From contig CBFHKH010000001.1 of NCBI GenBank assembly GCA_965656375.1, forward strand, positions 409,319-473,318: DNA of 64,000 nt, read 5' to 3'. Under the pieces are notes generated by a model that was not told the DNA's origin, did no database searches, and saw only the letters and a program-made list of their open reading frames with translations. The stretch is from Minisyncoccia bacterium. GTDB taxonomy: Bacteria; Patescibacteriota; Minisyncoccia; Phycocordibacterales; UBA9973. A program made the translations under genes and the position numbers. Positions 4,776-61,366 of the stretch are shown one piece after another (position 1 is the first letter of the stretch; every line of letters starts with the position of its first letter).

Positions 4776-5273
4776 TTATACTACAAGCGCATCGATCTCC
4801 TTGTCTATAACTTCCTCGTTGATTGGGCCAGCATCTTCACTCTTTTGTACTCGGCGCTTTGCTCCATCAGTCTTGCCATATGGGCGTTTTGAAGACATAG
4901 TATTCTCGCGAACAGTCTTGATCATAAGGTATCGAACAAGCTTTTCGTTCTTATCGAGCATATCTTTGATGATACGAGCGGCTTCTGTCGTACATTCAAA
5001 TTTTACCCAACCAAAGTACCCATACGAGAACTTCTGTTTTTTGTTTGCAATTGAACGAGTCATCTCGTATGCAAGCTCCATCATTTTTGGATATTCATCT
5101 GAGATGAATGTAACTCCCTGCTCTCCGAGCATATCCTTAAATGTTGTGACTTCACCGCCGAGATTCTCCTCAGCTACTGTCGGTACCATAATGTACCCTA
5201 CTTCATACACACTAACCTTTCCTCCTTTTTCCTCACCTACTACTTCTACACTTTCTTCTTTTGCTTTTGCCAT
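4776..5273 (-). CDS. rpsF: 30S ribosomal protein S6 (with N- and C-terminal extensions)
   Basis: YEVGYIMVP...LAYE... pattern of S6, and its position at the head of the rpsF-ssb-rpsR operon. Confidence 0.75.
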   Translation of the reverse strand: MAKAKEESVEVVGEEKGGKVSVYEVGYIMVPTVAEENLGGEVTTFKDMLGEQGVTFISDEYPKMMELAYEMTRSIANKKQKFSYGYFGWVKFECTTEAARIIKDMLDKNEKLVRYLMIKTVRENTMSSKRPYGKTDGAKRRVQKSEDAGPINEEVIDKEIDALVV

Positions 5274-48802: not shown

Positions 48803-49891
48803 CTATCGTTTTGTAGTGAAGGATACAGTTTTACCGTAGACTGTACCATGATCGTTCATACCAACAAGGCGATAATAATATTTTGTATTCGACGAAAGAT
48901 TGTTTACATTGATCTCTACCTCTTGTGTGTCCATACCAGAGAGTGTCCTCTTTGGAGTACCACTTCCTATCAAGTTTCCAAGAAGAGAGTCAGTACTATA
49001 CTCGAACCAATAGGTCGTCTGTGCATCATTTGGATTTATCCGTCCATTGAATACTGCATCAGAAGAGCTAATGCTGCTTGCATTTAGAGTCTCAACAGAT
49101 GGCTTGCTTGATTGCGCAGGGCCAGACGTAGTGAAATTCATAGTTGTTCCATTCACTGTACCGTACTGATTCTGTGCATTCAAGCGGAAGTAATATTTTG
49201 TAAGAGGTTCGAGTCCTGTGAGAGACATTGGAACAGACATAAATGTCGTACCTGAATTTGTAGCTCGGTATCCGGTTACAGACCCGAAGCTATTGTCCGT
49301 TCCGTATTCATACCAGTAGCTCGTGTCTGTACCATTTGGATTTACTTGGCCATTGATAGTAGCAGAGGTACGAGCAATATCACCTGCAGCATTTGTGCGC
49401 GTTGAAGGAGCTTTCGCCTGAGGTGGTGAGGTCATGTTTGTCTGGAAAGTATATGTAGTGCCATTCACAGTTCCGAATTTATTCTGTGCACTTAAGCGAT
49501 AGTAGTAGAGCGTGTTTGCTTTAAGACCTGTGATGAATGCAGGTGTTGGGGTAACATAATATCCTGAACCAATTGCTTGTGATGTACTCCGAGTGCCGAG
49601 TGCTGTTGTTTCCCCATATTCGTACCAGTATGTTGTAGCTGCTCCATTCGGCTTTACTGTTCCTGTGACTGCTGCAGTTGAGCTTGAAGTGTTGGCATTT
49701 GAATTTGTCACTACGATTGGTGCAGCTGGCGTTGCTACAGTCGAGGTTGGTGTGGGTGTAGTACCCTCTTCTGTAATAACAGGAAGTACTGTGGTATTGT
49801 CTACCATTACTTTATCTTTTGTTGATATATAGTATCCGAGTCCGATGATGATTATTAAGATCAATAATCCGATTACTGTATTTTTATTCAT
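48803..49891 (-). CDS. Membrane-anchored surface protein with three FN3-like NPNG..T.YW(F/Y)EYGT...YY(Y/F)RL.A.N repeats
   Basis: N-terminal TM, Thr/Pro linker, then three roughly 95-aa repeats of identical pattern. Confidence 0.7.
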   Translation of the reverse strand: MNKNTVIGLLILIIIIGLGYYISTKDKVMVDNTTVLPVITEEGTTPTPTSTVATPAAPIVVTNSNANTSSSTAAVTGTVKPNGAATTYWYEYGETTALGTRSTSQAIGSGYYVTPTPAFITGLKANTLYYYRLSAQNKFGTVNGTTYTFQTNMTSPPQAKAPSTRTNAAGDIARTSATINGQVNPNGTDTSYWYEYGTDNSFGSVTGYRATNSGTTFMSVPMSLTGLEPLTKYYFRLNAQNQYGTVNGTTMNFTTSGPAQSSKPSVETLNASSISSSDAVFNGRINPNDAQTTYWFEYSTDSLLGNLIGSGTPKRTLSGMDTQEVEINVNNLSSNTKYYYRLVGMNDHGTVYGKTVSFTTKR

Positions 49892-49970
49892 AAAATCAAA
49901 ATTAGTTAGTAAAATTACAATTATTTATAAATGAGTGCGACCTTTATACCTAATAAGCCTACCATGTAGG

Positions 49971-49997
49971 TAGACGGCCCAGTAATTACAATCTTAC
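49971..49997 (-). promoter_or_regulatory. ECF-type promoter GGTAAG-N16-CGTCTACC upstream of the FN3-repeat protein gene
   Basis: Minus-strand GTAAG (49993-49997), 16-nt spacer, CGTCTA (49971-49976). Same motif as three other sites in the window. Confidence 0.5.
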
Positions 49998-50468: not shown

Positions 50469-51509
50469 TTATCTCCACTCGTGTCTATTTTCGTCTGGAA
50501 ACGATTGTTCTTTGATGCTATTTCTATCACGTTTTGAATGAGTATTTTCTTCTTTCAATTGAAGTCCTGCTTTCAAAAAGATATCGGCTTCTGTAACTGA
50601 ATTTTCAGATTCAAGAAGCTTTGAGTATGCGTTCTCTTTATTTTCTTCGATATTGCCTTCATCAGACTCTTTCAACAGTTGTGCCGCCTGATCGAGTGTC
50701 TCCTGAGCGGTATTGATCACTCGTTGCTGCACTCGTGAATCCTTGCTCTCTGTACGATCTAGATTTTTATTTGTCGAATCTATGAGTGATTTAACCATTT
50801 CTTTTTTCTTGTTGTATCGTTCAGATGAATTGATCTCCTTGGTTTTCCAATTTGTTCGTATTGTATCGACGCTCGCACGAGCTGTCTTTGAGATCTCATT
50901 TCCTTCTGGTGTGTCTTCCTCTTTCTGATCAGAATCGATGATATCAAGAACTTTCGCATGGGCATTCATTCCCGCTTGGAAATTACGTACGATATCATCA
51001 ATTTTGTCCGATGATTTTTCTTTATCGAGCTCTATAAGACTTTTTTCCAAAGCCTTCGTATGAGTTTCCAAGAGGACAGCTATTTCTTTTTGCTTTGTCT
51101 CATCAAGGTTACCTGTCGAGGCAAGAGTCTCTGCTTCAACCATACGCTTTTTTGCACGGGTGCTTTCATATTCTGCTTTTGCTTCTTGTGAAAACGTAAG
51201 GCGAGCTCGAACAGGTTCTACAATATTTACTTTTACCGCATAGAGAGCGTCTCCCGGCAAACTCTCTTCTGAAGCAAATACTGCTTCTCGGCCGCCGACA
51301 AACACGATCAATAACATCGCAATACTTGCATAGAAAAAGCGATGCCGTTTTGAGAATATAAAAGAATACGACACCCATGAACTCTGTACTGGTTTTTTTA
51401 CAACTTGCGACGTACTCAAAATACGACCGAGCATGCGTTCTTTCTCAGCATCAGTCATGGTGATTTTTTTTATCTGTTGTATTCCTTTGTGTAATTTTTC
51501 GTCTTCCAT
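50469..51509 (-). CDS. Putative anti-sigma factor (DUF5667-like; single TM; LPGDALYAVK motif)
   Basis: Follows the ECF sigma with a 1-3 nt overlap. Cytoplasmic N-terminus, TM, then an extracytoplasmic domain with a PGD.LY motif and a Lys/Glu-rich tail. Confidence 0.55.
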   Translation of the reverse strand: MEDEKLHKGIQQIKKITMTDAEKERMLGRILSTSQVVKKPVQSSWVSYSFIFSKRHRFFYASIAMLLIVFVGGREAVFASEESLPGDALYAVKVNIVEPVRARLTFSQEAKAEYESTRAKKRMVEAETLASTGNLDETKQKEIAVLLETHTKALEKSLIELDKEKSSDKIDDIVRNFQAGMNAHAKVLDIIDSDQKEEDTPEGNEISKTARASVDTIRTNWKTKEINSSERYNKKKEMVKSLIDSTNKNLDRTESKDSRVQQRVINTAQETLDQAAQLLKESDEGNIEENKENAYSKLLESENSVTEADIFLKAGLQLKEENTHSKRDRNSIKEQSFPDENRHEWR

Positions 51510-51510
51510 T

Positions 51511-52038
51511 TTAATTTCCTTCTTCAATACTATACCCTGTCTTTTTTCGCAGCTCGAGCAATCCGCGATTAACCCGAACTGACGCTGCGTTGGCAGATAT
51601 GCCAAGACTTTCTCCTATCTCTCCTGGTGATAATCCTTCTACATACCGCAAATACACAGGATCTCGATATGTCGGAGACAATTCATTGATTTTCTCCAAG
51701 AGATATCTACCTTCTGGCCCAAGATCAAGATTGTCTGCTGTGCTCGCATCGATGACATCATACTCCCCCGTCTCTTCATCTGCCATTTTGCTGAACACAA
51801 TGCTCTTCTTCTTGCGATACCAGTCGATAATCAGGTGTCGAATGATGGTAAAGAGAAATGCTCTCGTATTTTGTATTTCATCCCCTTTTTGCATCGTTTG
51901 CCAGAGGCGAACAAAAGCTTCCTGGGTGATATCGAGAGCTTGCTCTCTATCAGACACGCGAGTCAAGCAAAATCGGAATAGGGTGTCTGACTCTGTAGTG
52001 TATATCTCTTCAAATGTATGGGTAATATCAGGTTTCAT
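51511..52038 (-). CDS. ECF-family RNA polymerase sigma factor
   Basis: Regions 2 and 4 (IIDWYRKKKS...LSPGEIGESLGISANAASVR). Paralogue of 60519-61031. Confidence 0.85.
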   Translation of the reverse strand: MKPDITHTFEEIYTTESDTLFRFCLTRVSDREQALDITQEAFVRLWQTMQKGDEIQNTRAFLFTIIRHLIIDWYRKKKSIVFSKMADEETGEYDVIDASTADNLDLGPEGRYLLEKINELSPTYRDPVYLRYVEGLSPGEIGESLGISANAASVRVNRGLLELRKKTGYSIEEGN

Positions 52039-52130
52039 TGGGAAAGACGAACAAAAGCGCTATTTCTTACGTACTCGTACGGCCGTTGCTATCTAGATAT
52101 AAAATACAATATATATCATCCAATGTCTAT

Positions 52131-52158
52131 GTAAGGAAAGAGAATAGAGCTCCGTCTA
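52131..52158 (+). promoter_or_regulatory. ECF-type promoter GTAAG-N17-CGTCTACC upstream of the PKD/FN3 protein gene
   Basis: Plus-strand GTAAG at 52131-52135 and CGTCTA at 52153-52158, followed by the palindrome tataggg-atatat-accctata (52166-52186). Confidence 0.45.
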
Positions 52159-52237
52159 CCATAGTATAGGTTACTTATAGGGATATATACCCTATAAAAA
52201 GCCTTCAAATTATCAAATTAATTGAGTAAATAAAATT

Positions 52238-53479
52238 ATGAAAAAAACAAAATTTATAACAAGTTCGCTTTTGATTCTATCCATGGCTATCGTGCCGTTC
52301 GTAAGTTCTGCGGATAATGGATTTCTTTTCCGTGGAGACGATAATAATCGCAGTATCCGAGTAGAAACTCGGGCTGACCTTGATGCGAAAGCAAAAGTAG
52401 ATCTAAAACATGAAAGTAATAAAAATAAAGAAGATAAAGATAAGGATCGAGATTCTCGTTCCAATAAATCAATCTTGGGTGCGTTATTTGGTTCATCTGA
52501 GAATCGCGTAAATGCAGAAGTAAAAGCAAATAGTAATGCGAGCTTTAACCGTAACAACATACCGATTATTTCTGGGATTACTGCTCCAACAATGTTGAAG
52601 GTTGGAGAAACAGGTACATGGACAGTAAATGCATCTGATTCATCTAATGGATCACTCTCATACTCAGTTAACTGGGGTGACAGAAAAGACGATAGTACTG
52701 CAAAGATGTCATCAGAATCATTTACTCAGACAAGTACATTTACCCATGCATATGCGAACCCGGGAACATACAAGATCGCATTCGCAGTTAAAAATAGTGC
52801 AGGGCTTTCAGCAGTTTCCACTACAACAGTCCGCGTAACAAGTACAAATACAGTTGCCGCACCAGTTATTAGTAATGTTTCTGTTACATCAACAAAGCCA
52901 CATCAGGCTACAGTAACATGGACTACAGATGTCCGTTCAACGAGCCTCGTTTGGTACAGCAAAACATCACCAGTTAACACTTCAGGAAATGCAAACATTG
53001 CTCGAAATTCATTCTGGAATTCTTTCTGGAACGTGAAGGGTCGTGATCACAAGGTTACTCTTACAAAACTAGAACCAGGTACGACATACTATGTAATAGT
53101 AGGTTCCGCAAATGCTTCTGGCAAGACTCTATCATCAGAAGTATCTGTAACAACACCTGCTCTTCCAAATTCAAGTAACGCACCAGTGATAACAAGCCTT
53201 ACAGGAAATACATCAGTAGTAGTGGGACAAACAGCAACAATTACAGTTAACGCCTATGATCCAGATAACGGTTCCCTTACCTACACAGCAGACTGGGGTG
53301 ATAACACAAGTTCTACATTCTCACTCAAAGCTGGCACTGATGTGTATACACAGACAAGCACATTTACCCACGTTTATGATGTAGCAGGTACATATAAAGC
53401 CACATTCACCGCACAAAACAGTAAAGGATTGAAAGCATCTTCATCAGTAAATATCACAGCACAAGCTGCTACTCAATAA
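52238..53479 (+). CDS. Secreted protein with two PKD domains flanking an FN3-like domain
   Basis: Signal peptide. The W.GDxxD...P.H.Y...GTYK pattern occurs twice (SYSVNWGDRKDD / YTADWGDNTSS); central VTWTT...YYVIV FN3-like domain. Confidence 0.75.
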   Translation: MKKTKFITSSLLILSMAIVPFVSSADNGFLFRGDDNNRSIRVETRADLDAKAKVDLKHESNKNKEDKDKDRDSRSNKSILGALFGSSENRVNAEVKANSNASFNRNNIPIISGITAPTMLKVGETGTWTVNASDSSNGSLSYSVNWGDRKDDSTAKMSSESFTQTSTFTHAYANPGTYKIAFAVKNSAGLSAVSTTTVRVTSTNTVAAPVISNVSVTSTKPHQATVTWTTDVRSTSLVWYSKTSPVNTSGNANIARNSFWNSFWNVKGRDHKVTLTKLEPGTTYYVIVGSANASGKTLSSEVSVTTPALPNSSNAPVITSLTGNTSVVVGQTATITVNAYDPDNGSLTYTADWGDNTSSTFSLKAGTDVYTQTSTFTHVYDVAGTYKATFTAQNSKGLKASSSVNITAQAATQ

Positions 53480-53527: not shown

Positions 53528-54040
53528 ATGATTACAACAGCAGGAATCTTTAGGACTCATTTAGAAGCAGAACGAGCAATCAATGAATTACACGCATTCG
53601 GTGTCGCTACAAGTGATATGTCATACGTATATATCGATGTTGATGGAGAAATAATCGATGCACACACAGATAGTAAAATAGGTTCAGGCCTTGCTTCTGG
53701 CGCAACGACAGGGTCAGTCCTTGGAGCAATCGCTGGCCTTGCTATCGCAAACGGCATCTTGCCAGGACTTGGTTCACTCATAGTAGCTGGACCACTCGCA
53801 GCAGCGCTCGGATTTACGGGTGTAGCAGCTACAACAGTAGCAGGTGCAGCTACGGGCGCAATGGCAGGAGGATTCATCGGGGCACTCAGCAATATGGGTG
53901 TAGAAAGTGCTGATGCAGCGATCTATGAGAACTCTGTCCGCTTAGGAGAAGTATTAGTCGTCGTAAAGTCACAAAATCTCGTTACAAAAGATATCTTCGA
54001 AAAAGCAGGGGCTCGCGAGATCAGAGAGTACATACATTAA
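53528..54040 (+). CDS. General stress protein YflT-like (DUF1269) with glycine-zipper membrane region
   Basis: N-terminus GIFRTHLEAERAINELHAFGV resembles B. subtilis YflT; central Gly/Ala-zipper repeats. Confidence 0.6.
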   Translation: MITTAGIFRTHLEAERAINELHAFGVATSDMSYVYIDVDGEIIDAHTDSKIGSGLASGATTGSVLGAIAGLAIANGILPGLGSLIVAGPLAAALGFTGVAATTVAGAATGAMAGGFIGALSNMGVESADAAIYENSVRLGEVLVVVKSQNLVTKDIFEKAGAREIREYIH

Positions 54041-55989: not shown

Positions 55990-56838
55990 ATGAAAAAGAA
56001 AGTGCCTAAAAAACAATACCGAAGACCAGGACTCCAGTCGAAGATGAATCCAAAGCCAAAAAGCGACACTTCTGCGACCAAGAATACTCCTCGATTACAA
56101 GATAAGGTTGCGATAATCACCGGAGGAGATAGCGGTATTGGTCGTGCAGTAGCTATCGCATTTGCCAAAGAAGGCGCACAGGTGGCTATTGTATATCTCA
56201 ACGAGCACAAGGACGCAAAGGAAACAAAGCATCTTGTTGAAGAGTATGGAGGAGAGTGTATGCTCATCGCAGGTGATATCGGCCGAGAATCATTCGTAAA
56301 AAAAGCAGTAGGAAGCGTGAAGAAACACTTTAAGAAGATCGACATCATAGTCAACAACGCAGCCGAACAGCATCCACAAAAATCAATATTACAAGTAAGC
56401 GAGCGTCAGATTGAGCGGACATTTCGGACAAATATTTTTGCTCAGTTTTTCATGGTTAAAGCTGCGCTTCCCTATCTCAAAAAAGGAAGTACTATTATAA
56501 ACACCGCATCTGTGACTGCATATCGCGGAAGTAAAGATCTGCTTGATTATTCAGCGACAAAAGGTGCCATCGTAGCGTTCACTCGATCGCTGTCTGAATC
56601 CCTCGCAAAGAAAGGTATTCGAGTAAATGCAGTCGCACCTGGTGCAGTCTGGACTCCCCTCATTCCGTCTACATTTTCCAAAAAGAAAATGAAGAAATTC
56701 GGAACACAGAACCCTATGGAACGAGCAGGTGAACCGGCAGAGATAGCTCCGGCATTCGTATATTTGGCAAGCGAAGACTCGTCATTCATGACAGGCCAAG
56801 TACTCCATCCGAATGGAGGAGAAATAATAAACGGATAG
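55990..56838 (+). CDS. SDR-family oxidoreductase, YghA/YhdF (general stress protein 39)-like
   Basis: N-terminal extension KQYRRPGLQSKMNPKPK parallels YghA; TGGDSGIGR cofactor motif; catalytic YSATK. Confidence 0.85.
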   Translation: MKKKVPKKQYRRPGLQSKMNPKPKSDTSATKNTPRLQDKVAIITGGDSGIGRAVAIAFAKEGAQVAIVYLNEHKDAKETKHLVEEYGGECMLIAGDIGRESFVKKAVGSVKKHFKKIDIIVNNAAEQHPQKSILQVSERQIERTFRTNIFAQFFMVKAALPYLKKGSTIINTASVTAYRGSKDLLDYSATKGAIVAFTRSLSESLAKKGIRVNAVAPGAVWTPLIPSTFSKKKMKKFGTQNPMERAGEPAEIAPAFVYLASEDSSFMTGQVLHPNGGEIING

Positions 56839-59615: not shown

Positions 59616-60125
59616 TTATTCTTCTTCCTCGCTCTCTTCTTCGACTCGTTCAAGATTTTCCGTACAAGCTTCCGCAAGTTTTTCATCAGCTGCAACTTCT
59701 TCTTCGAGTGTCATTTCTAAAAGTTCTACTGCATCATCGAGTCCTAGATTCTGTGCTTCTTCTATAGCCCCCATATAACCAGCCATCTCGTAATGCTCTG
59801 CATATCGAGCAGCAGAAGCAAGCATACTATCTTTGAGAGCACTTGGTGCATCCAATTTCGCGACCCAGTCTCCATCTTTTATTATGCCTTTGATTCCTTC
59901 GCAAGTTACTTTCTTTGGTTTTTCCTCAAGAAGAGAAAATATTTTCTCTAATCTCATACTATGTTCTTTTGTTTCTTCTAAGTGGGAAAGAAACCCTTTT
60001 TTAAGAACAGGATCAGTAGATGCTTTTGCAAGTTTGGGAAGGGCTTTTTCGAGTTGTCTTTCTATATCATAGAGTGCTTGGATTTTTATAACGAATGCAC
60101 TTTCTGTGTCATTTATTTTTTTCAT
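59616..60125 (-). CDS. Ferritin-like DUF892 (YciE/YciF-family) stress protein
   Basis: ALYDIERQL...LSHLEETKEH..RLE pattern typical of YciF/YciE; acidic C-terminal tail. Confidence 0.65.
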   Translation of the reverse strand: MKKINDTESAFVIKIQALYDIERQLEKALPKLAKASTDPVLKKGFLSHLEETKEHSMRLEKIFSLLEEKPKKVTCEGIKGIIKDGDWVAKLDAPSALKDSMLASAARYAEHYEMAGYMGAIEEAQNLGLDDAVELLEMTLEEEVAADEKLAEACTENLERVEEESEEEE

Positions 60126-60211
60126 ATATATTTATAATTAAACTTATAATGTCGACATTAATTATTGTATTGATCTCCCCTTATGATGACGTCTTACAAA
60201 TGAAATACTTT

Positions 60212-60249
60212 CTCAAGCAAAAAGCCACCGAAGTGGCTTTTTGCTTGAG
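60212..60249. terminator. Terminator hairpin (17-bp perfect stem) downstream of small protein 1
   Basis: ctcaagcaaaaagccac-cgaa-gtggctttttgcttgag. Confidence 0.6.
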
Positions 60250-60251
60250 AA

Positions 60252-60407
60252 TTATTCTCCGTCATTCATATTAGTGCCCTTGTTTTCACTACCAGAATTA
60301 TTTTCATTCCCATTGTTGCCATTATTTTGATTCTGGTTCTTATTCTCGTTCTCATTTTCATTTCGAGAGTCTGCGTCATTTCGAGTCTGATTGTTATTGT
60401 TTGCCAT
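60252..60407 (-). CDS. Small Asn-rich hydrophilic protein 1 (51 aa; MANNNNQTRNDADSRNENENENKNQNQNNGNNG...)
   Basis: ATG at 60405-60407, stop at 60252. ECF-type promoter and conserved 5'UTR upstream, strong terminator downstream. Paralogue of 61165-61287. Confidence 0.45.
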   Translation of the reverse strand: MANNNNQTRNDADSRNENENENKNQNQNNGNNGNENNSGSENKGTNMNDGE

Positions 60408-60473
60408 AAAATGTATTGAATGGTTATGGTTAGAAATCTAACCTCCTTATAATATTCGACCCTCGCACTAGAG

Positions 60474-60502
60474 TAGACGTGCGAGGGTGTGAAAGTCTTT
60501 CC
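60474..60502 (-). promoter_or_regulatory. ECF-type promoter GGAAAG-N17-CGTCTACT
   Basis: Minus-strand GGAAAG (60497-60502) and CGTCTA (60474-60479). The 5'UTR shares GGGTCGA.TATTA.AAG(G/A)AGGT with copy 2. Confidence 0.5.
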
Positions 60503-60518
60503 TGTCTAAAATTTAAAT

Positions 60519-61031
60519 TTAATACTGATATCCGGATATTTTTCGAAGTGCGGTGAGCGCTTTACTGATACGTACTGATGCAGCATTTGCAGACACACCA
60601 AGTTTCTCTCCTATTTCTTTTGGAGATAGACCCATCATAAAGCGAAGGTTAAGTATTTCTTTATGCGTGTGAGTAAGTTCATTTACTTTCTGCCAGATAA
60701 GCCTCGATTCAGGCCCAAAGCTCAAATTGTCCATTGATTTTTCATCAATGACTTCATTCACAAATTCCCCCTCACTCATTTCTTCAAGAGATACGCTTTT
60801 TTTCTTGCGGTACCAATCAATGATAAGTCGACGGGTTATAGTGAATATATATGCTTTGCCATTCTTTATAGTCTTGCCAATTGAAAGGCTCTGCCACAGT
60901 CGCAAAAATGCTTCCTGACTGATGTCTTCTGCTTGCTCTTTATTGGATACACGTAACATACAGAATTTCATAATGAGTCCTGATGTTTCTTCGTATATCT
61001 TCTTAAATGTAATAACAATGTGTTTTCTCAT
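60519..61031 (-). CDS. ECF-family RNA polymerase sigma factor
   Basis: Regions 2 and 4; about 45% identical to 51511-52038 (IIDWYRKKKS, LSFGPE, GLSPKEIGEKLGVSANAASVR). Confidence 0.85.
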   Translation of the reverse strand: MRKHIVITFKKIYEETSGLIMKFCMLRVSNKEQAEDISQEAFLRLWQSLSIGKTIKNGKAYIFTITRRLIIDWYRKKKSVSLEEMSEGEFVNEVIDEKSMDNLSFGPESRLIWQKVNELTHTHKEILNLRFMMGLSPKEIGEKLGVSANAASVRISKALTALRKISGYQY

Positions 61032-61164
61032 AAGTAGAAATATCGCACTATTTCATTATATACCTACTTTATAATATTAGAAATATCGAAATTCTTTCTT
61101 TTATGTACACACAGCTACATACCCTAATACAAGGCCACGCTTGTGGCTTTGTATTAGAGTATGT

Positions 61165-61287
61165 TTATTTACCGCTTATATTTGAACCCCTTTCATTGCG
61201 ATTATTGTTTTTGTTCCTGTTATTTCCAGCTCTATTACGGTTAGCGCTTCTATTCTCAGAAGCATTTCGATTTTGATTGTTTGGCAT
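61165..61287 (-). CDS. Small Asn/Arg-rich hydrophilic protein 2 (40 aa; MPNNQNRNASENRSANRNRAGNNRNKNNNRNERGSNISGK)
   Basis: ATG at 61285-61287, with the same promoter/5'UTR architecture as protein 1. The ORF-track upstream extension was not used. Confidence 0.4.
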   Translation of the reverse strand: MPNNQNRNASENRSANRNRAGNNRNKNNNRNERGSNISGK

Positions 61288-61338
61288 ATTGTATATATTA
61301 ATTACTATTACCTTCTTAATACTCGACCCACATCTAAG

Positions 61339-61366
61339 TAGACGGGGTGGAAGTCGTATCCTTTCC
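61339..61366 (-). promoter_or_regulatory. ECF-type promoter GGAAAG-N16-CGTCTACT
   Basis: Minus-strand GGAAAG (61361-61366) and CGTCTA (61339-61344). Confidence 0.5.

Follow-up and report, generated by a model that had tools for sequence, protein, structure and literature searches.

Two short units with extracytoplasmic function-type promoters bracket an orphan sigma factor gene in a Minisyncoccia bacterium and may encode tiny asparagine-rich disordered proteins

Small products of alternative sigma factor regulons are known from several bacteria. In enterobacteria, MicA, RybB and MicL are small RNAs (sRNAs) that depend on sigmaE, a sigma factor of the extracytoplasmic function (ECF) type. On the protein side, YciG and YmdF of E. 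coli and Salmonella, the KGG-repeat proteins associated with the sigmaS-controlled yciGFE locus, are 55–60 residues long, very hydrophilic and disordered, and their genes directly precede DUF892 genes (yciF/yciE); YciG counts as a hydrophilin (PMC5437024). Under stress or growth arrest, some bacteria make disordered, charged proteins with a mass near or slightly above 5 kDa, among them SutA of P. aeruginosa (bioRxiv 10.1101/423384) and the 5.7-kDa CrsL of actinobacteria (PMC12709188). ECF sigma factors themselves are commonly, but not obligatorily, encoded together with a cognate anti-sigma factor, and those that lack one, such as HrpL and SigE of S. coelicolor, are often under transcriptional control or placed in cascades (PMC8999054). 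Here we analyze a stretch of 64,000 nucleotides, hereafter the window, from a Minisyncoccia bacterium of the Patescibacteria, or candidate phyla radiation (CPR) (GenBank assembly GCA_965656375.1, contig CBFHKH010000001.1, positions 409,319 to 473,318 of the forward strand). In this window, two short paralogous transcription units, w40 and w51, bracket the gene of an ECF sigma factor that we call sigma-B. We hold, with moderate confidence, that the two are ECF-promoter-driven units arranged around an orphan sigma factor and that each encodes a tiny, Asn-rich, disordered protein. Small hydrophilic proteins under alternative sigma factors, short ECF-dependent transcripts and ECF sigma factors without an anti-sigma are all known kinds (PMC8999054). 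What is new is that they occur together in a CPR bacterium, that two paralogs of opposite charge are both extremely rich in Asn, and that they are placed around an orphan sigma paralog which has lost its own promoter as well as its anti-sigma.

The units w40 and w51 and the sigma-B gene between them form a 1.2-kb unit, which reads as follows in the direction of transcription:

61339–61366, minus strand: promoter P(w40), with -35 GGAAAG at 61366–61361, a 16-nucleotide spacer and -10 CGTCTA at 61344–61339, an exact match to the motif
61317–61329, minus strand: w40 leader core GGGTCGAGTATTA, the 5' element GGTCG...ATTATTA of the family minus its usual inserted hairpin
61165–61287, minus strand: w40, an open reading frame (ORF) of 40 codons (MPNNQNRNASENRSANRNRAGNNRNKNNNRNERGSNISGK), Asn 38%, pI 12, grand average of hydropathy (GRAVY) -2.4
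61117–61164, minus strand: long hairpin directly 3' of the w40 stop codon, predicted dG -31, without a clean U-tract
61055–61060, minus strand: perfect TATAAT, read from the sequence as a putative promoter element, 23 nucleotides 5' of the sigma-B ATG
60519–61031, minus strand: sigma-B, an ECF sigma factor of 170 residues with regions 2 and 4 (Pfam)
60474–60502, minus strand: promoter P(w51), with -35 GGAAAG at 60502–60497, a 17-nucleotide spacer and -10 CGTCTA at 60479–60474
60459–60488, minus strand: 10-bp GC-rich inverted repeat ACCCTCGCAC/GTGCGAGGGT around the -10 of P(w51), predicted dG -19, z -5.9
60450–60462, minus strand: w51 leader core GGGTCGAATATTA
60252–60407, minus strand: w51, an ORF of 51 codons (MANNNNQTRNDADSRNENENENKNQNQNNGNNGNENNSGSENKGTNMNDGE), Asn 41%, pI 4.4, GRAVY -2.6
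60210–60251, minus strand: strong bidirectional intrinsic terminator, 19 pairs in the scan, predicted dG -34, with the inner stem GCCAC-TTCG-GTGGC followed by TTTTT
59616–60125, minus strand: DUF892 gene (Pfam)

A first-pass annotation, made from the letters of the window, had drawn attention to both small ORFs and to the sigma gene. All three are present where it placed them, on the minus strand, and the predicted proteins begin MANNNNQTRN (w51, 51 residues) and MPNNQNRN (w40, 40 residues). It had also assigned a strong terminator to each unit. Both hairpins exist and the one after w51 runs into a T-run, but the one after w40 has no U-tract, so that the assignment is sound for w51 only.

Set against the described systems, the locus resembles each in part. 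Like YciG and YmdF, the w40 and w51 products would be very hydrophilic and disordered and expressed from an alternative-sigma promoter, and w51 lies directly upstream of a DUF892 gene. They differ in being rich in Asn rather than Gly, Lys and Gln, in having no match to the KGG family (PF10685) and in carrying an ECF rather than a sigmaS promoter; furthermore, between w51 and the DUF892 gene stands a strong terminator, and the third copy of the module, on the related contig L081 described below, has 3% Gly and no DUF892 neighbour. With MicA, RybB and MicL the units share an ECF promoter, a transcript of ~100–300 nucleotides, an intrinsic terminator and membership in the sigma factor's own regulon. 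Unlike these sRNAs, they are filled by conserved ATG-to-stop frames, have no Rfam match and begin with a generic mRNA leader. Sigma-B resembles HrpL and SigE in appearing to depend on transcription, with a housekeeping-type -10 and possible additional input from an upstream cognate promoter (PMC8999054); it differs from them in that its own genome also encodes the canonical sigma/anti-sigma pair of which it is a recent paralog, in that it probably reads the same promoters, and in being bracketed by tiny ORFs that carry promoters of the cognate type. The similarity to SutA and CrsL is one of size, disorder and charge and not of sequence, and any contact of w40 or w51 with RNA polymerase or sigma-B is purely conjectural.

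Chance does not account for the promoters of the two units. The pattern GGAAAG-N15-18-CGTCTA occurs exactly twice in 64 kb (60474–60502 and 61339–61366), compared to an expectation of 0.02, and GGGTCGARTATTA likewise has exactly two exact occurrences. Both promoters have the AAC/AAG-type -35 core, the 16–17-nucleotide spacer and the -10 CGTC(T) that characterize ECF promoters. For comparison we retrieved 80 genomic loci (L001–L080) encoding sigma-B relatives at 40–57% identity. They show that GTAAGA/GGAAAG-N14-17-CGTCTAC serves this ECF sigma group of Paceibacteria-like bacteria as a promoter throughout the family. The motif GTAAGAAA-N14/15-CGTC is located ~7 nucleotides 5' of the sigma ATG in 61 of 80 loci; this is a leaderless autoregulatory promoter, a hallmark of ECF sigma genes. 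A divergent second copy, tgtcYATGTAAGAAA-N15-CGTCTAC-N9/10-GGTCG, is found at most 400 nucleotides upstream of the sigma gene in 31 of 80 loci, typically about 100 nucleotides away on the opposite strand, and these 31 copies make up most of the 43 relaxed promoter matches in 608 kb. The divergent promoter precedes secreted proteins that consist of a signal peptide, a low-complexity stretch rich in N, K, D and E, and PKD/fn3 or cytochrome-b5-like domains. Because the GGAAAG...CGTCTAC elements of w40 and w51 are variants of this family motif, their reading as ECF promoters, already proposed in the first-pass annotation, is well founded: the same -35/-10 pair is conserved at sigma genes and their targets in the 80 related loci.

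The window contains four promoters of the sigma-family type, all between 49.9 and 61.4 kb. Besides P(w40) and P(w51), two target promoters belong to a canonical sigma/anti-sigma/target set at 48.8–53.5 kb, which the first-pass annotation had passed over, together with the orphan status of sigma-B:

52044–52070, minus strand: leaderless autoregulatory promoter of sigma-A, GTAAGA-N15-CGTCTT
51511–52038, minus strand: sigma-A, the canonical paralog of sigma-B
50469–51509, minus strand: gene of a DUF5667 anti-sigma factor, paired with sigma-A
52131–52159, plus strand: divergent target promoter tgtctatGTAAGGAAAG-N14-CGTCTAC, followed by AGGTTA, a hairpin and ATTATCA
52238–53479, plus strand: secreted PKD/fn3 protein, the target of the promoter at 52131
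49970–49997, minus strand: fourth promoter, GTAAGA-N16-CGTCTAC, upstream of an fn3/PhoD_N-like protein (48803–49891)

Downstream of the promoters, the two units also share a leader. The annotation had described a conserved block of about 75 nucleotides; the alignment does start at the -35 as claimed, but its solid part extends only to ...TATTA, ~55–60 nucleotides, with weak similarity beyond. Comparison with the relatives shows what this leader is. Nearly all target promoters of the family are followed by GGTCG 9–11 nucleotides past the -10, then by a hairpin of variable sequence, and then by ATTATTA. The hairpin is more stable than shuffled sequences in 17 of 21 cases (z < -2; mean z -3.7) and is probably a 5' stabilizing stem-loop. 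The w40 and w51 leaders, GGTCGA(A/G)TATTA, are the same element without the hairpin, and this hairpin-less form also precedes ordinary genes in two of the related loci, L035 and L026. The leader is thus the generic 5' end of regulon mRNAs. The suggestion that the conserved 5' untranslated region (UTR) is specific to the small ORFs, or is a dedicated riboswitch-like RNA, does not survive this comparison, as the element stands before ordinary protein genes throughout the regulon. Because the small ORFs occupy a bona fide gene position behind this leader, the alternative that they are incidental to a cis-regulatory RNA is also weakened. Searching the window with Rfam covariance models gave no hit at the gathering score, only sub-threshold miRNA-like noise on the hairpins of the locus. 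The combination of promoter and GGTCG-hairpin-ATTATTA leader, for which Rfam has no match, is by itself a candidate for a 5'-UTR element of CPR bacteria that has so far gone undescribed.

P(w51) begins 16 nucleotides past the sigma-B stop codon, and no terminator separates the two, which points to co-transcription of sigma-B and w51. Around the -10 of P(w51), the ACCCTCGCAC/GTGCGAGGGT repeat would fold in read-through RNA arriving from sigma-B. A hairpin enclosing the -10 was considered as a feature of the family and rejected: the mean z over 30 promoters is 0.0, and P(w51) is the only one to have such a hairpin. A metagenome scan with CGTCTAYT-N6-13-GGTCGA-N1-4-ATTA proved too permissive, and all inspected loci among the matches listed were chance occurrences in unrelated GC contexts.

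Are w40 and w51 protein-coding? Several observations argue that they probably are, as far as sequence can tell. Their composition is unique in the window: the six frames contain 787 open segments with 38 or more codons, of which w51 and w40 alone reach 25% Asn per 38 residues (47% and 42%, respectively), and they are the sole ATG-initiated ORFs of 20–100 residues with at least 20% Asn and at most 12% hydrophobic residues. The annotation had called them entirely free of hydrophobic residues, which is nearly so; apart from Met1, the exceptions are a few Ala and a single Met and Ile. Each frame is longer than expected from dinucleotide-shuffled sequence (longest-ORF p = 0.008 for w51, 0.005 for w40 and 0.02 for the L081 copy). 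In all three copies the ATG sits at the onset of the periodic stretch and the stop codon lies 0–12 nucleotides before the hairpin. All three also show strong 3-periodicity, with A-rich codon positions 1 and 2. At codon position 3, T is favoured in the window (GC3 0.35) and C in L081 (GC3 0.43), and the ratio of AAT to AAC changes from 15:6 and 10:5 in the window copies to 5:12 in L081; such third-position drift fits coding. An aligned N-R-N is retained through synonymous changes (AAC CGT AAT versus AAC CGC AAC). In addition, the automatic gene caller of one pipeline predicted w51 on an identical Logan contig (29.6 kb, inside the window).

The lack of a Shine-Dalgarno (SD) sequence does not speak against the small ORFs. 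The organism appears to be largely leaderless and SD-free: an SD-like tetramer precedes only 2 of 50 long ORFs in the window, and a TAnWMT box ending 4–9 nucleotides before the ATG precedes 24 of 59 long ORFs (at least 120 residues), compared to 3.6% of random positions. As leaderless initiation is common, a missing SD carries no weight. By the same token AAGGAGGT, which the first-pass annotation had noted in the leader, is not a ribosome-binding site. It is 38 nucleotides from the ATG in w51 and 25 nucleotides in w40 (as AAGAAGGT), it is absent in L081, and SD sites are hardly used by this organism. We also considered and rejected a Val/Ile-rich ORF of 50 residues on the opposite strand, called by JGI in L081 (5191–5343, minus strand) in place of the Asn-rich frame and with a counterpart at 60327–60419 of the plus strand in the window. 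It is an annotation artefact: it is the complement of AAY codons, has TTG starts only, varies in length and frame, and runs against the promoter and leader.

Conservation of the module was analyzed through P0002, the only member of the sigma-B clade besides sigma-B itself among 5.8 billion proteins. The two are 64% identical, are reciprocal nearest neighbours and form sister branches in a neighbour-joining tree; when this collection is searched with a profile, sigma-B scores 358 bits and P0002 350, and the next match falls to 233. The P0002 contig, L081, has different neighbour genes and, like the sigma-B locus, no anti-sigma gene. Five nucleotides past its sigma stop codon we find GTAAGAG-N15-CGTCTACTCTA...GGTCGAAATTATTA and, 41 nucleotides on, an ATG. 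This opens an Asn-rich ORF of 38 codons with an MxNNN start (MTNNNSNNNQNTSDNRNDNRNENDNNRSQNSGSNKNRE), followed by a terminator hairpin 12 nucleotides past the stop. By position, w51 is the ortholog of the L081 ORF, and w40 is an extra copy in the genome of the window. The annotation had proposed a search of relatives for short ORFs behind the motif. In L081 the frame, the ATG and the Asn richness are kept, but the 80 canonical sigma loci contain no comparable small hydrophilic ORF. One Asn-rich match in these loci, at 5094–5252 of L060, was rejected as a homolog because it is the C-terminal tail of a DUF5667 anti-sigma factor. The presence of the module in L081 and its absence from the 80 canonical loci indicate that it is specific to the orphan sigma-B clade, and its retention in L081 argues for selection on the open frame. 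Sigma-B and its neighbours match proteins of metagenome-assembled Paceibacterota, Nomurabacteria and Minisyncoccia, all CPR/Patescibacteria, and the sigma-B sequence is also present on an 840-kb contig.

Sigma-B has the size and domain content of a group 4 sigma factor, with Pfam matches to Sigma70_r2, Sigma70_r4, Sigma70_r4_2 and Sigma70_ECF, and is 51% identical to sigma-A. In contrast to sigma-A, no adjacent anti-sigma gene is found at its locus. Neither sigma-B nor P0002 has directly upstream the GTAAGAAA-type autoregulatory promoter that is present at sigma-A and most relatives. What remains upstream of sigma-B is a degenerate relic of it (GAAATAGTGC...), which shares GAAATAG(C/T)GC with the sigma-A promoter and now carries the TATAAT; P(w40), further upstream, could substitute for the missing promoter. 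Sigma-A and sigma-B are almost alike in the segments that recognize the -10 and -35 elements (LIIDWYRKKKS and SANAASVR(I/V)), and both sigma factors could therefore use the same promoters. Elsewhere the orphan clade has diverged: the nearly invariant FRFC of region 2.1 is replaced by (M/L)KFC, AEGRY by PESR, and TYRDPVYLRF by (T/K)H(K/R)EIL(N/E)LRF. These substitutions may reflect release from anti-sigma binding.

The predicted proteins are small (5.6 kDa for w51, 4.5 kDa for w40; 4.4–5.6 kDa over the three copies), rich in charged residues and extremely hydrophilic, with GRAVY values of -2.56 for w51, -2.41 for w40 and -2.89 for the L081 copy. AlphaFold2, run on the single w51 sequence, predicts no secondary structure (pTM 0.13), and the hydropathy range of -2.4 to -2.9 agrees with the disorder that the first-pass annotation had predicted. 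The two paralogs differ in charge: w51 is acidic (net charge -5.5, pI 4.4), w40 strongly basic (+6.5, pI 12) and the L081 protein near neutral (pI 6.1). With Gly contents of 10% and 8%, w51 and w40 lie within the formal composition limits for hydrophilins of Garay-Arroyo as quoted in PMC5437024 (Gly >6%, mean hydrophilicity >1); the L081 copy, with 3% Gly, does not, so that both limits hold for two of the three copies only. A Pfam search at E<=10 returned no family for w40 or w51, including LEA and KGG/PF10685. By analogy with other alternative-sigma regulons, they would most plausibly serve as small hydrophilic proteins in stress, acting either as hydrophilin-like protectants or as charged binders of nucleic acid or protein. 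A possible evolutionary source is suggested by the secreted regulon proteins (52238–53479 in the window and, among others, those of L014, L043, L056 and L060), in which an N/K/D/E-rich low-complexity stretch directly follows the signal peptide; in composition this stretch, for example AENNNKDQNNNGNKIEQTDNEKNNENEGRK in L060, resembles the small ORFs.

Several points weigh against the protein reading. About 75% of codons (~72–76% over the copies) have the form RRN, and 48–59% the form ARN. Openness therefore follows automatically from an (AAN)n-like repeat, and periodicity or openness alone cannot separate coding from an RNA motif; a second frame is likewise open in 3 of 3 copies. Right after the ATG, the nucleotides CAAACAA are conserved although the second codon differs at its first base (GCA, CCA or ACA) and with it the second amino acid. 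Protein homologs are missing: none was found with a profile built from the three copies and run against 5.8 billion proteins and none by phmmer with w51 against 1.84 billion representatives, both being searches to which short low-complexity queries are nearly blind, and exact look-ups placed neither ORF in a collection of 15 billion proteins. Only three copies in two genomes are at hand, the conservation rests on one ortholog, and L081 has the downstream unit only. Judging by the recognition segments, the driver of P(w40) and P(w51) could be either sigma-A or sigma-B. The apparent housekeeping TATAAT implies that sigma-B expression may not depend on read-through. Lastly, a hydrophilin function would be pure analogy, and one from which the L081 protein, with only 3% Gly, departs. 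Several of these points, namely the purine-rich codons, the conserved CAAACAA and the missing protein homologs, would fit ECF-dependent sRNAs, noncoding or dual, of ~215–255 nucleotides with an A-rich (AAN)n body, whose open frame is a by-product of the triplet repeat. Such an RNA could act, for example, as a sponge for an RNA-binding protein that recognizes A-rich motifs or as a base-pairing regulator. A promoter and a terminator with nothing else between them is indeed the layout of MicA, RybB and MicL, the codon pattern resembles the A-rich motifs of the Hfq distal face and CrcZ type, and the ORF bodies fold weakly. On the other hand, Rfam has no match, the conserved 5' segment is a regulon mRNA leader and not an sRNA-specific seed, the ATG and a stop codon near the hairpin are retained in 3 of 3 copies, and the drift from AAT to AAC at third positions tracks genomic GC3. 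The window holds no Hfq-like gene, but this is uninformative, as the window covers 64 of about 840 kb. We consider an RNA-only or dual function unlikely, though it deserves to be kept in mind.

The w40 unit may instead serve mainly to bring sigma-B under the control of a cognate promoter, as a leader or upstream ORF, with the hairpin as a leaky or regulated attenuator and the peptide itself unimportant. P(w40) lies 335 nucleotides upstream of sigma-B on the same strand, the hairpin between them has no U-tract, sigma-B is without the autoregulatory promoter that 61 of 80 relatives have, and transcriptional or cascade control is frequent for ECF sigma factors lacking an anti-sigma (PMC8999054). 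L081, however, has no upstream unit, and a perfect TATAAT stands between the hairpin and sigma-B. Nor can a leader role account for w51, the conserved copy, because it follows sigma-B and runs into a strong terminator. As the principal function of w40 this is doubtful, slightly more so than the RNA reading, but a leader role does not exclude either protein or RNA function. A special case, an attenuator in which the ribosome senses Asn, was rejected: we found no convincing partner with which the 5' arm of the terminator could pair instead, and the downstream genes (sigma, DUF892 and, in L081, a DinB-like gene) are unrelated to asparagine supply. It is improbable that the ORFs are non-functional leftovers, in which duplicated target promoters stand before linker fragments of a secreted target or the tail of a lost anti-sigma factor. 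The mature N-termini of secreted targets are similar in composition, w51 occupies the slot of the anti-sigma gene in canonical loci and the module is limited to two genomes; yet it has survived complete across 36% divergence in sigma-B, amid neighbour genes that are entirely different in the two genomes, and each ORF is improbably long for its composition. Equally remote is a proposal that w40 and w51 replace the lost anti-sigma, as sigma-induced, disordered and oppositely charged binders of sigma-B or RNA polymerase, or as partners that condense with each other or with nucleic acid. If true, this would provide feedback on an otherwise unrestrained ECF sigma factor and constitute a new class of ECF regulator in the anti-sigma slot.

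Based on these observations, we suggest how a module of two protein-coding units around sigma-B might work. A signal sensed by the DUF5667 anti-sigma factor would free sigma-A. Freed sigma-A, together with sigma-B, would then fire the GTAAGA/GGAAAG-CGTCTAC promoters, that is, sigma-A's own, those of the secreted PKD/fn3 targets, P(w40) and P(w51). The hairpin after w40 is possibly leaky because it lacks a U-tract; transcripts from P(w40) would in part pass it and read into sigma-B, adding to the sigma-B made from the TATAAT promoter. Having no anti-sigma factor, sigma-B would sustain or amplify expression from the same promoters. It would be co-transcribed with w51 up to the strong terminator at 60251–60210, and both small proteins would accumulate in the cytoplasm.

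The module lies among genes that the first-pass annotation had described as a stress-protein island. Pfam confirms the YflT, SDR and DUF892 assignments as well as the ECF sigma factor. A lectin/Ig surface protein also belongs to the island, as do MgsA and endonuclease V according to precomputed Pfam results for the identical Logan contig. The neighbours outside the 1.2-kb unit, other than the DUF892 gene listed above, are:

62422–61391, minus strand: DoxX-family membrane protein, the first gene in locus order
55990–56838: SDR
53528–54040: YflT

Transcriptional regulation in CPR bacteria, or Patescibacteria, is almost unexplored because these organisms are uncultured. In the literature on ECF sigma factors in Patescibacteria, on DUF5667 and on asparagine-rich small bacterial proteins we found no prior description of such a module. 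Its practical impact is limited, since two metagenomic genomes only carry it and function is not to be inferred from sequence. For the biology of the group, the locus and its relatives lay out an ECF regulon whose parts are recognizable in the sequence: a leaderless autoregulated sigma factor, a DUF5667 anti-sigma factor, and secreted PKD/fn3 targets with their hairpin leader. A rare sub-lineage adds unannotated micro-genes coupled to an orphan paralog of the sigma factor. If these micro-genes encode real proteins, their products, with about 40% Asn, would be a new extreme among disordered stress-regulon proteins, of a kind that is missed by annotation or called on the wrong strand.

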